Assembly: GCA_964016885.1 (NCBI GenBank) | Contig: OZ024751.1 | Coordinates: forward strand, 26,598,001-26,662,000 | From: Eledone cirrhosa | Lineage: Eukaryota | Direction of reading: 5' to 3' | Length of the DNA stretch: 64,000 nt | In this document: in pieces, positions 45,793 to 61,549 of the stretch | Layout: each line of letters begins with the position of its first letter | Numbering within the stretch: position 1 is the first letter of the stretch | Notes under the pieces: model-generated | Told to the model about the DNA's origin: nothing | Database searches by the model: none | Seen by the model: only the letters and a program-made list of their open reading frames with translations | Position numbers and translations under genes: made by a program

Positions 45793-46400
45793 GTCAGGTC
45801 ACCACTTGGTGCTACTGGTAACATGTATCCCAGTACAACCTGTCTCATGGTCGGGTCGTTGGCGACTAAACTGGCAACCCCACTAAGGTTTCTTGGTGAG
45901 GAGGGTGACTTTGGACATCCTGCAGGACTAAAAACAAAACCTGTCAAAGGGCAAAGGAGCTCTTAAGAGTCAATGGCCATCCAAAATCACCGGGAGAGAT
46001 GACCCCTTAGCCTTTGTCAAGGCAGAATTCTAGGAGAAGGAAAACTCTGATATAACACCTGCAACCCTGATGGTATCCAATGATGTTGACTTGTTCTTCT
46101 TTTTGGTAAATATCATCTTGGTTAAGAGAGTGGGACTGGCTTTGTGCAGTGCCTTTGCTCACTATAAAAGCTTCACGGCACAGGCATTGCTTTGTATCTG
46201 GAGATCTCTCTGCACTTGTCATTACATGGTACCATGGGCCCAGCACTATGTGTCAATAATTGTCACAAGTGTAGTGTTTGTACCAGAGTTTTCAAGTTGC
46301 TGGCTGGACTAAAAAGTCACACTCGTTCAGCGTATCGGTAGGTGTTCTCCTACATGGTTATAGAGTAGTGGCCGTACTCGAAAACGAGTTGGCAGCCACC
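45793..46400 (+). mobile_element. Full-length ~600-bp RTE-related non-autonomous retroelement with (ATGT)n tail
   Basis: Three near-identical copies in the window. Contains ctaggagaaggaaaactctga, which resembles RTE 5' UTRs (from recall). 3' hairpin GTGGC..ACTCG-AAAA-CGAGT..GCCAC, then (ATGT)n. No Pol III boxes or credible ORF. Confidence 0.85.
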
Positions 46401-47310: not shown

Positions 47311-47490
47311 ATGGATTGGCAGTATCGGTAGAGGGTCGGACGCCATGCTTTCCAGCATAGTTACGTCCCTTTACGATCTGAGTTCAAATCCCGCCGAGGT
47401 TGACTTTGCCTTTCATCCTTACGGGGTCGATAAAATAAAGTACCAGTAATGAACTGGGTAATTGCTGGCCTTGTGCCTAAAGTAGACACA
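47311..47490 (+). mobile_element. tRNA-derived SINE, family A (most complete copy)
   Basis: A-box TGGCAGTATCGG, B-box GTTCAAATCC, body gactttgcctttcatccttacggggtcgataaaataaagtaccag. Fragments also at ~559-600, 8435-8497 and 60922-61020. Confidence 0.85.
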
Positions 47491-47709
47491 AATATATATA
47501 TATATATATATGATATGAGTATCTATTATAAATGTAACATATTTTGATGCACGAAAGTTGTAAGTTTTATTATTCTGCTTCTAAATCTGCTTTTGATCAC
47601 ATCTTGAGTTGCTTTTAGATATACTAACTCTTGGTATGCTGTTTATATATATATGACTTTAATCTATGAACTCACTTGTTTTTATCTTGATGCTTATGGA
47701 AATTTTTGT

Positions 47710-51930: not shown

Positions 51931-51932
<2 letters not shown>

Positions 51933-52535
51933 TGGCTGCCAACTCGTTTTCGAGTACGGCCACTACTTTATATCCATGTAGGAGAACCCCTACCGATGCG
52001 CTGAACGAGTGTGACTTTTTAGTCCAGCCAGCGACTTGAAAACTCTGGTACAAACACTACACTTGTGACAATTATTGACACATAGTGCTGGGCCCATGGT
52101 ACCATGTGACGACAAGTGCAGAGAGATCTCCAGATATAAAGCAATGCCTGTGCCGTGAAGCTTTTATAGTGAGCAAAGGCACTGCACAAAGCCAGTCCCA
52201 CTCTCTTAACCAAGATGATATTTACCAAAAAGAACAAGTCAACATCATTGGATACCATCAGGGTTGCAGGTGTTATATCAGAGTTTTCCTTCTCCTAGAA
52301 TTCTGCCTTGACAAAGGCTAAGGGGTCATCTCTCCCAGTGATTTTGGATGGCCATTGACTCTTAAGAGCTCCTTTGCCCTTTGACAGGTTTTGTTTTTAG
52401 TCCTGCAGGATGTCCAAAGTCACCCTCCTCACCAAGAAACCTTGGTGGGGTTGCCAGTTTAGTCGCCAACGACCCGACCATGAGACAGGTTGTACTGGGA
52501 TACATGTTACCAGTAGCACCAACTGGTGACCTGAC
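51931..52535 (-). mobile_element. Second full-length copy of the RTE-related ~600-bp element
   Basis: Reverse complement of 45793-46400 with the same termini. Inserted in (TA)n. Confidence 0.9.
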
Positions 52536-52584
<49 letters not shown>

Positions 52585-52590
<6 letters not shown>

Positions 52591-52996
52591 TAAAGAAAAC
52601 GAAAAATCAGTGATGCATCTGGACTCAATTTATTGCGTGTTACAATTGTTTCGCCGGCAGGTAGCTCGAGACATGGTCCCTGTATGGATCTGGCTGATTC
52701 TACGGCTGCAGGTTCCTTCAGACACGGGTAGTTCGTTCGGAGCAAATTTTATCACCCATAAAGTTTGCTCCGAACGAACTACCCGTGTCTGAAGGAACCT
52801 GCAGCCGTAGAATCAGCCAGATCCATACAGGGACCATGTCTCGAGCTACCTGCCGGCGAAACAATTGTAACACGCAATAAATTGAGTCCAGATGCATCAC
52901 TGATTTTTCGTTTTCTTTATACTATCTACACTCTACTCTGCTGAATATCGAGTGCTAATTTTGGCATACCGCCTATGGAAGCACCATAGCTACCAT
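52585..52996. mobile_element. Head-to-head hairpin insertion of an HHR-bearing element with a one-sided tail
   Basis: Inverted arms 52585-52752 / 52758-52925 (loop CACCC, one T.G mismatch). The right arm continues ~70 bp to 52996, and that tail is shared with 6797-6870. Confidence 0.85.
52784..52874 (+). ncRNA. Variant hammerhead with extended stem II (mirror copy 52636-52726, minus)
   Basis: CGTGT-CTGAAGGA-ACCTGCAGCCGTAG...CTACCTGCCGGC-GAAAC-AATT-GTA-ACACG. Perfect stem I, palindromic loop 3, GUA triplet. The first box is non-canonical (CUGAAGG). Confidence 0.65.
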
Positions 52997-53188
52997 TATA
53001 CACAAGTATATATATGGTAGTGGTAGTGGTAGTTCCAATCATGGCTGCTACCGATAACAACACCAACAACATCAACAACATTAAGAAAATCAACAATAAC
53101 ATTTTCAACAGCACCACCACCACCACCACCAACAACAACAATAACAATACCATCCACAACAACATCCACAACAACAGTAACAGCAGCT

Positions 53189-56617: not shown

Positions 56618-57129
56618 TAGATAGATAGATAGAGAGAGAGAAGAGTTGCACCCATGATCTTTATATTGTAGTAGGATGAGAGTAAGTTACCAACGAAGTG
56701 GACATCTGACTTGAAAACTTTCAAAAGAGTTCAGACCGTTAACGGAGCCCAAATACCAGTTGGTGTGTTTAATCCGGATGCCGGATTACATCTACGAATC
56801 AGAACGCCAAAGAGCCAGAACAAATACTGCCACAAAACCTTCTGTTCGACGCTCTGTCAATTCTACCAATCCACCGCCATGGTACTTCATTTTATTGACG
56901 ACACTTATCGAAGTTTAAAGACAAAGGTGATCTCGGCCATATTTGAACTCCAATAAAGTATCACTAGACATGTTGATATTCTCAAGGTTTGAACTGAGAG
57001 TATGCTGAGCTTCAATAACCTATCACCATATATGTTGATCTCGGCAAGATTTGAAGTCAGTGTCTACTGAGCTCCAATAAAAATGGACTATTCATTGATT
57101 TTTACCAGGGTTCAAGCCCCCCCCCCCCC

Positions 57130-58375
57130 CTTAGCTGATTTTCCTGAAACTCACACCTCATCCTCTGAAACTAATGACAGATCAGTCTTCAACCTGGACT
57201 CATCTAGGCAGACTGTTCTTGATAGAGCAGAAGGCAGATCAAAACCTCTCCTAAAGTGTAAACATCCCGCTCACTTTAGCACATTCAATGTCAATACCCT
57301 TGGTCCTCTTGGAAGACTTGATGAGCTAGTAACAATTGCTAAATCTAATGGTATTGACATCATCAGTCTTCAAGAGCATAGACATTTCCATCCAGATCTA
57401 GACCTAAAGTTTACAAAATCTGACAATTTCCAGCTTGTCATCGCCTATGCATACAACAATTCCAATAACGCCACCATTGGTGGAGTTGGTATGTTTCTCT
57501 CATCAAGGGCACGTGAGAACCTCATCAACATCGAAAAGATAGATGATAGAATAACGGTTGCCGAGTTCACTTCAAATCCCAAACTCACATTTATCTTGCT
57601 ATAGCCCAACAAATAGCAGTGATGAAGAAACTGCCGCCTGTTTCTATCAGTCTAAAAAAGGTGACCTCTCATCCTCCCAAAACTAACGGGGAATATTATT
57701 TATACCCATTGCTGCCAAGATCTACAACAAGCTAATCCTCAACCGTAGAGTTCCGTATGTTGATCCAATCCTTTGCATCAACCAAAACAGTTTTAGGTGT
57801 GGTAGATCTAGACTAGCACATATGTTGGCCTTGAGAAGAGTAGTGGAAGAAACTCCAACAGACAAATTGTTCTGGTTTTTGTTGACTTTAGAAAAGTTTT
57901 TGACAGCATAAACCGAGACATTCTGTTTGAAATTCTACCCAGCATGACTTGTGGAAGCAATTAAGGCTCTGTATCTCAACACAAATGCCAGTATTATCAC
58001 CCCTGATGGCCCCACAGAGTTCTTTGACATCTCAGCAGGAGTGCTGCAGGGTGACACTGTTGCCCATTTCTCTTTATCCTCGCACTAGACTACACCCTGA
58101 GAATTTCAATCGACAAAATCAATAACAAAGGCATAACCATCAAACCCCGCATGAGCTCTAGGCACCCCTCTAAACATCTCACTTGACTTTGTCGATGACA
58201 TTGCACTTCTTGCAGATTGCCTAGAAAATGCGCAACAACTTTTGACATCTCTCCAGGAAGCAGCCACCCTTGTTGGCCTTCATCTCAACGGGGGTTAAAC
58301 AGAGTACATAACAAACTGTACAGGCAACAACATCAAAGCAATCAACGACAGTGATATCAAGCAAGTCTCGGGTCC
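57130..58375 (+). pseudogene. Decayed, internally deleted RTE-clade LINE (APE + RT)
   Basis: APE: STFNVNTL, DIISLQEHR, ATIGGVG, YSPT. Then, after a large deletion, RT motifs KKGDLS, AAKIYNKLILNR, FVDFRKVFDSI, GVLQGDT, DFVDDIALL, GLHLN. Several frameshifts and stops. Confidence 0.92.
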
Positions 58376-58682: not shown

Positions 58683-58779
<97 letters not shown>

Positions 58780-58780
58780 A

Positions 58781-59150
58781 TACGATATATTAACAAATGG
58801 AAACTATATTTATAAAACCATAATTATTTCATTATACATATTTCAAGGACACCAAGTTAGATTATGGTGTGCTTTCATCAGGTAAAATATAATATAGAGC
58901 AGTTTTATAAATAAATATTGACATACCCTTAAAGAATGCGACCATTTCTGTTGGAAGCTCCCGGTTAGTGGGGTTATAAATTTATTTATACTATTATGTA
59001 AATTAGTTTCGGATATTTTAAAATCAGAGTAGATTAAATAAGCCGTTGGGTTATTTGTTAATATATCGTATTTTTACTCCAATAACTTGTTGAGTGCTTT
59101 ATATCAGTTATAAAAATATTTGTTTGTTGTATCTCAACAATTTAAATAGA
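58781..59150. mobile_element. Head-to-head insertion of the 36850-37100 HHR family
   Basis: The left part is the minus-strand cassette ending at tacgatatattaacaaat (58781-58798). That segment recurs inverted at 59053-59070 and continues ~80 bp as the family tail. (TA)n on both sides. Confidence 0.75.
58827..58887 (-). ncRNA. Minimal hammerhead ribozyme, paralog of 36973-37034
   Basis: TTTTAC-CTGATGA-AAGCACACCA(TAATCTAACT)TGGTGTCCTT-GAAA-TATGTA-TA-ATGAAA. Confidence 0.7.
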
Positions 59151-59155
59151 AGTTC

Positions 59156-59219
<64 letters not shown>

Positions 59220-60780: not shown

Positions 60781-61549
60781 CACACACCCACGTGTGTGTG
60801 TGTATTTATGTGTGTGTATGTATTTGTGTGTGCGTATGTATATGTATGTGTATGTCCGTCGGCGCATATGTATGTACTGGCCTAAATCTTCACTATTTAC
60901 TTTTACTATTTTAAGGCAAAGTTAAAATCCCGTCGAGGTTAACTTTGCCTTTCATCCTTACGGGGTCGATAAAATAAAGTACCAGTAATGTACTGGGTAA
61001 GTGCCAAAAGTAGAAACAACAATTTTAATAACCTCTGTCATTTTCGTTTACAATTTTATTTACATCATTCTTAAACTCCGGGGCTGGAAATCATTCGGTT
61101 ATTTTAAATTTTTAAATAGAATATTAGTCTAACGACTCCATTTACACCATAAACTTGGTCTCGTCTTTGCATGAAATTGTTCTCCTCGATCCACATAACG
61201 ACGTATTATCCTCGCTTTTTTTCCGTTCATTACCACGGAACGTCTTCACGAACCAAAATATGGTCTTCCTGTTTTCCTTCGGTTGCAACGTTTCTCGAAA
61301 TATTTAATTCTGCGTCCACAGATAGAATTTATTAGTTTAAGATCCCGTTAATGATGAAAGCAGCGATTCTTTGGTTAAACTTTCTTTCTTTCTCAAACCC
61401 TCTCTCTCTCTTTCTCTCTCTCTCACTCACTCATACCCCCTTTCTCTCTCTTCCTCCTACAGAATGGAGAACAATAAAGAACGCGCAGATCTCTCTCTCT
61501 CTTTATATATATATGTGTGTTTATGTGCGTGTGAACCAGCGTTCGTCAC

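Follow-up and report, generated by a model that had tools for sequence, protein, structure and literature searches.

What sort of event could set two nearly identical arms head-to-head in a (TA)n tract and leave a tail on only one of them? The question is raised by a hairpin at positions 52585-53006 of the window, the stretch of 64,000 nucleotides of Eledone cirrhosa DNA that was analysed (GCA_964016885.1, contig OZ024751.1, positions 26,598,001 to 26,662,000). We consider it probable that the hairpin stems from one insertion of a Hydra-type Penelope-like element (PLE), truncated to an extreme degree on the 5' side and comprised of two head-to-head pLTRs, which would have arisen from a cut in both strands of the (TA)n tract, with each end priming reverse transcription on element RNA.

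The arms of the hairpin (52585-52752 and 52758-52925) are 168 bp long, differ by a single mismatch at 52747 and are separated by CACCC, which confirms the near-perfect arms of about 168 bp and the 5-nt loop that the first-pass annotation had described; the CAC on the inverted-copy side of this "loop" is still element sequence. Pair analysis (L001: inverted q0..173, gap 2) places the inverted, untailed pLTR copy, which ends at a short site S, at 52585-52755 on the minus strand. It is followed by a 2-nt filler (52756-52757) that forms the head-to-head junction and by the shared part of the direct pLTR copy, the long arm, at 52758-52925 on the plus strand. The junction lies at the 5'-end hotspot of the family, a candidate transcription start, and the window hairpin is the shortest regular product, in that the hotspot terminates both arms. 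A tail runs on from site S to a second end site, T (52926-53006, plus strand), and corresponds to a portion of the parental 5' UTR, upstream of an ORF that has its ATG about 45 nt beyond T. The tail was rightly described as present on one arm only, but it measures 81 nt instead of about 70 bp and ends 10 bases further on than first thought. Sites S and T of the family are 82 nt apart, and a small hairpin motif, YRCTC-N11-GAGYG, lies just beyond S (52934-52954, plus strand). The (TA)n target tract forms a long run to the left of the short arm (52539-52587) and a short run after the tail (53007-53015), where it overlaps the element's own TATATA at T. The window copy is non-coding. A repeat of about 600 bp that is present in very high copy number (97-98% identical; 51931-52533, 45795-46400 and 20311-20719) ends at the left TA tract.

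To what class does the element belong? Judged from its sequence, the family of this hairpin, family A, is a Hydra-type EN+ PLE with a parent encoding RT and GIY-YIG, and the window hairpin is the stump of a known retrotransposon class, ordinary as an element. A search of the genome of origin with the long arm returned 2792 first-look candidates, the 40 that were scored being 97-100% identical, and the window copy is 98-99% identical to its relatives. Among 30 fetched loci, the tail ends at one site and the 5' side is variable, with a TA run adjacent at nearly all of them. The longest copies continue upstream into a microsatellite-rich UTR of about 2.3 kb (the 3' UTR) and then into the coding region. 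Of 20 further loci selected by that coding region, four have direct pLTRs flanking the ORF (L038, L047, L053 and L054) and six an inverted copy at the 5' side (L039, L040, L044, L045, L046 and L049); the pLTR-to-pLTR distance is about 5.2-5.6 kb (L038, L047 and L053). No intact ORF was found in the long copies, and since all frames are broken, the "one ORF" that holds RT and GIY-YIG had to be put together from overlapping fragments of different copies.

The RT piece has a YRDD motif, and an AlphaFold model of it, based on a 77-row alignment (pLDDT 95), finds its matches (E 2.6e-6 to 1e-5) among RT structures that include retron RT and TERT; a single-sequence fold was unusable (pLDDT 44). In the ESM Atlas, the RT piece falls with animal clusters, some of which carry RVT_1 on 12-13% of their members. 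Pfam found no RT family, RVT_1 included, in the family A pieces, PDB sequence searches gave nothing significant, and 0 of 1311 candidates passed in a homologue search with the RT piece. The C-terminal piece scored at best 21.2 bits (E 3.7e-4) against GIY-YIG in Pfam, where the cut-off is 22.6, and PF01541 was recognized in four copies (E 3.7e-4 to 0.02), every one under the curated cut-off. Among the 20 long copies, many of them truncated or broken, SDKT occurs in 5, CxCX5C in 15, CxxC in 13 and CxH in 17, and the second cysteine inside the GIY-YIG core that belongs to the CCHH pair occurs in none. We dropped a Neptune-like identity on the Hydra-clade motif set (DKT, CxCX5C, CxxC, CxH and no CCHH). 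Loci L202-L216 belong to another Hydra-type family, in which the 3' UTR is short and the hammerhead is a separate one; it has 2903 first-look candidates in the genome.

Each arm of the window hairpin carries an outward-pointing type I hammerhead-like motif, located by pattern scan at 52785-52873 (plus strand) and, as its mirror in the inverted arm, at 52637-52725 (minus strand). The motif comprises, in order, stem I, CUGAAGGA, a long stem II region, GAAA, a palindromic CAAUUG stem III and GUA. The outward hammerhead ribozyme annotated earlier in each arm holds up as a motif and in its orientation, but the core is atypical and an Rfam scan of the whole window gave no match at the gathering score, hammerhead included. 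The core reads CTGAAGGA or CTGAAAGA in 54 of 71 family A motif contexts, with the canonical CTGANGA rare; stem II, at about 60 nt, is weak, and the motif folds freely no better than shuffled sequences (z = +0.93). Minimal PLE hammerheads with a palindromic stem III are described in PMC4209133 as having low activity. An older, related family A pLTR copy with a tail (6789-7078, minus strand; about 82%) has an expanded palindromic stem III region, which forms 8.5 copies of a 12-bp tandem unit at 6912-7014. Further hammerhead- or pLTR-like fragments of the window are a dispersed 370-bp repeat (34486-34847 and 61019-61385), a relative of family C (36845-37076) and a copy of family B (32465-32611).

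The same architecture recurs in three other families in the window, and all four hairpin families are single-tailed, with the tail on either arm. That these families are unrelated in sequence, as had been proposed, is borne out by blastn of the four references against each other, which detected no DNA similarity. The family B hairpin (39049-39619) was reported as tail-less at 39350-39619, which proved incorrect: a tail of about 108 nt lies at 39049-39156, separated from its arm by an insertion of 183 bp (39157-39339) that shows a target duplication of 11 bp. A SINE-like repeat of about 180 bp with an 11-bp target duplication is present at 39157-39339, 47312-47491, 14198-14338 and 60920-61039, as well as at L094 and L110, and in at least 3 of 30 loci it has inserted at one and the same TAT-rich position within the pLTR of family B. 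No parent ORF of family B was found in 60 loci, and the endonuclease frame of L098/L188 was rejected as its parent on finding the B pLTR at just 1 of 15 frame loci, the source locus.

Family C (58779-59159) joins an untailed arm at 58779-59054 (minus strand) to a tailed arm at approximately 59037-59159 (plus strand). Annotated before at 58781-59150 as the same design with a tail, it does have a tail (about 88 nt), but on the short arm and not the long one. Its parent is Hydra-type, L190 having the order inverted pLTR, pLTR, ORF, pLTR. Family D (5958-6535) has head-to-head pLTRs and a tail of about 56 nt on the left arm. The family D parent L178 (G000:C21:33423500-33430500) holds an open frame of 1280 codons (1612-5451, minus strand) between direct pLTRs, and family D copies are 99-100% identical, so L178 may be recently active. 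RT and endonuclease motifs were read by eye in family D, where, unlike in Hydra, a cysteine pair lies inside the GIY-YIG core; Pfam found no family in the family C or D frames. An open frame at 57071-57604 of the window resembles, by eye, the endonuclease end of a LINE. The parents found, those of families A, C and D, encode RT, and that of family A also GIY-YIG, which disposes of the alternative, named in the first-pass annotation as a possible refutation, that the arms are TIRs of DNA transposons.

How are the two end sites paired across insertions? We examined the best-scoring matches of genome searches in the four families, 150 loci that were reduced to 128 by removal of duplicates (two family D loci and one family C locus so removed are possibly near-identical separate loci); the queries forced a tailed end in family D, in the first family A set and in five family C loci. 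An inverted partner lies upstream at 69 of the 128 loci, and 59 are without a same-family inverted partner within 1.5 kb. Automatic classification of the 69 pairs gave 53 mixed pairs of one S and one T end, 1 T+T, 3 S+S and 12 unclear. On manual checking, 62 pairs were mixed, 1 was T+T, none was S+S and 6 were unclear, i.e., 62 of 63 classifiable pairs were mixed: the tails of the three S+S pairs had been displaced by nested insertion, and six unclear pairs resolved as mixed. Both arms of L002 are tailed. In the tail-neutral subsets, mixed pairs account for 10 of 11 in family A (p 0.006) and 7 of 7 in family C (p 0.008), tested against 50:50. Partners are also strongly oriented in the sampled loci, with 55 of 128 head-to-head within 70 bp against 3 of 128 tail-to-tail within 300 bp. 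This bias, along with the 2792 family A candidates and the near-identity of those scored, favors a common integration mechanism over chance inversions, as was first suggested.

The 5' ends are clustered. In tail-neutral family A loci, just 8 of the 235 positions that could be observed account for 15 of the 23 uncensored 5' ends, two loci being counted once per arm, and family D has a similar hotspot, which lies just downstream of sequences that we take to resemble NRF1, ETS and YY1 sites. The hotspot may be the transcription start, as judged from these end positions. Full-length copies start upstream of it with extra UTR, which rules out that the hotspot is simply their 5' pLTR start; a full-length start off the hotspot fits, short of proof, a promoter inside a partial tandem. 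At L010, L026 and L007, the first 35 nt or so of the pLTR are tandemly repeated or internally deleted at the junction, which points to repeated jumps at the RNA 5' end. At the 3' sites, element sequence overlaps the TA run by 3-6 nt at all six end sites of families A, C and D, against a background in which runs of at least 3 occur at 6-15% of positions. Moreover, the motif YRCTC-N10-12-GAGYG lies a few bases past S and again past T in families A and C, and is absent from 8.5 kb of family A and C body sequence and from families B and D. Among full-length family A copies, it is present at both sites in 2 of 4 and at S in 4 of 4. No shuffle in 5000 had two matches, a control that is generous because the pattern was written from the same sequences.

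The proposed mechanism would begin with the element protein cutting both strands of a (TA)n tract. Of the two cut strands, one would use S on the element RNA as its priming site and the other would use T, which would leave a single, one-sided tail. The twin hairpins, together with short stretches of pairing between TA bases, may position the priming. Both cDNAs would be extended until the template ends at the RNA 5' terminus, for which the hotspot, as putative transcription start, would stand, and the two would then be joined head-to-head with a few filler bases. Two-site, two-strand chemistry has been shown for another PLE; we infer its coupling here, the roles of the TA overlap and twin hairpins, and the reading of the hotspot as the start site. 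Observations that point against this reading include the two tailed arms of L002, the skipping of the hotspot by full-length copies, the 59 loci that have no same-family inverted partner within 1.5 kb and the search for an intact family A ORF, which found none.

The main rival is fold-back copying, in which the first cDNA or an antisense template primes itself to give the second arm, and the endonuclease trims the arms at S and T during integration. PMC3846280, which noted head-to-head inverted pLTRs, proposed self-priming on an antisense template, and PMC8557442 attributes the tail to EN-mediated resolution. Non-majority bases are shared 2-8 times more often within a pair than between loci, an excess that accords with the preferred reading but that fold-back or later gene conversion would also fit, and several copies have a weak TTATCAC/GTGATAA palindrome at the junction. 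We nevertheless regard fold-back as unlikely. At L004, a family C tailed arm is joined to a family A arm via a short switch piece, and L005 has a foreign hammerhead-bearing arm in a head-to-head pair; neither can be a copy of the partner arm, and the L004 joint needs separate RNA-templated priming. These cross-family head-to-head junctions (L004:1330-1505 and L005:1290-1505, oriented) have a short inverted family A bridge, which points to template switching between RNAs. In 14 pairs (five of them query-selected), the untailed arm extends over 20 nt beyond the 5' limit of the tailed one, which means that plain copying of either arm from the other would require extra trimming. Finally, two RT starts were mapped directly in vitro at the tail bounds (PMC11167929).

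Alternatively, the hairpin might itself be a mobile non-autonomous unit that is transposed intact, in the manner of a MITE-like cassette or a palindromic retrozyme. Such a unit would suit the many copies of nearly equal length and centre, but it is largely refuted, and we hold it to be very improbable. Junction fillers and arm lengths vary between copies, with junction gaps of -5 to 20 nt and inverted arms starting at q0, 68, 87, 106 and 145, and the window's own junction is absent from the other sampled copies. There is no transposase, TIR or non-TA target duplication (a TSD would be unreadable inside (TA)n), and no retrozyme-type tandem array. Non-LTR retrozymes (bioRxiv 10.64898/2026.07.22.740005) are likewise short, non-coding, PLE-derived sequences with a type I hammerhead, but they form head-to-tail tandem arrays, whereas the window has only a head-to-head pair with a variable junction.

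Two independent insertions in one TA tract might be considered, given that every family inserts in (TA)n, that the families cluster in shared tracts and that the three tail-to-tail loci lie across a TA run; an assembly fold-back artefact would be in keeping with the finding that no short-read contig spans the whole hairpin (one sample, uninformative either way). Both are extremely unlikely in view of the strict S+T pairing, the head-to-head bias and the lack of TA between the arms, and older pairs show 3-8% divergence between their arms, with nested insertions confined to one of the two, which is not expected from an artefact. We find it equally hard to credit that the host keeps the hairpin as a dsRNA element for ADAR editing or small-RNA production: a read-through RNA is predicted to form a 168-bp stem of -330 kcal/mol, which would bury the sense hammerhead too, but the window copy is young, so its arm identity needs no selection, and stop-to-stop frames of at least 150 aa in 44-64 kb are simple repeats, save one LINE-like piece.

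The preferred reading, priming of both strands on element RNA, has to be set against what is known of PLEs. Published accounts of this class already include (TA)n targets, a hammerhead motif, tails on one side and inverted copies that are truncated at the 5' end, such that the architecture is already known. PMC8557442 describes the Hydra clade of C-terminal EN+ PLEs, with Hydra-1_Obim (octopus), Penelope-13_HM and (TA)n targets in its File S1, reports the inverted 5'-truncated copy at the 5' end of PLEs along with a tail that is often one-sided, and calls the origin of both features open. PMC11167929 answers that question only partly, in vitro: an anole PLE protein, predicted to be a dimer, cut and extended both strands, and RT began from two internal sites, between which the tail lies. 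Priming in that system is reported at a site that lacks homology to the cleaved DNA, in contrast to the overlap with TA in families A, C and D.

Family A resembles the Hydra clade, as described in PMC8557442, in having RT followed by GIY-YIG, the DKT, CxCX5C, CxxC and CxH motifs without CCHH, a pLTR hammerhead with palindromic stem III (here hammerhead-like), (TA)n targets and a 5'-truncated inverted 5' copy. It departs from the clade in its length of about 5.3 kb with a microsatellite-rich 3' UTR of about 2.3 kb, where published members are mostly under 3 kb (a general trend, not a rule), in reading RWR where the Hydra clade has RWK, and in the long stem II and atypical core of its hammerhead-like motif, the sequence of which is not that listed there for Hydra-1_oBim; the tail of 81 nt exceeds the 30-40 bp given for published PLEs. 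Penelope and Poseidon insertions (PMC3846280; Poseidon_Ac, PMC11167929) likewise have head-to-head pLTRs, a tail on one arm, two 3' end sites and AT-rich targets. Poseidon_Ac, however, is described as priming inside the ORF at an AC-rich stem-loop non-homologous to the target, whereas here the end sites overlap the TA target by 3-6 nt with the twin hairpin motif next to them, and the family A tail lies in the 5' UTR. Among the open-literature listings on Penelope twin priming and on cephalopod editing and inverted repeats, subscription papers being outside this scope, there is no statement of the S+T pairing rule. The comparison suggests that this pairing, the 5' clustering, the TA microhomology and the small hairpin shared by two Hydra families are less familiar in the literature.

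It is possible that what we describe for these families is general, and that PLEs integrate by coupled twin priming, in which a protein dimer would hold one RNA at two fixed sites, marked in Hydra elements by the twin hairpins and TA microhomology, and each subunit would prime one cut strand from a different site, with short run-off products resembling a strong-stop DNA; we advance this idea tentatively. In L1 twin priming, both target strands also prime and the inverted 5' part is joined with little filler, but the position of the second start varies and there is no overlap between the two parts; here, in contrast, both starts are fixed and the parts overlap, which yields a palindrome. If true, coupled twin priming would explain in one step why the repeat is head-to-head, why only one side is tailed and why the hairpins have a fixed length. 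The value of the finding is mechanistic, in that the S+T pairing, the fixed 5' end and the marked start sites make sharp predictions, and family D provides a young, open-frame element with which to test them. For the genome as a whole, such insertions are a source of numerous long and perfect inverted repeats that, if transcribed, could provide material for RNA editing.
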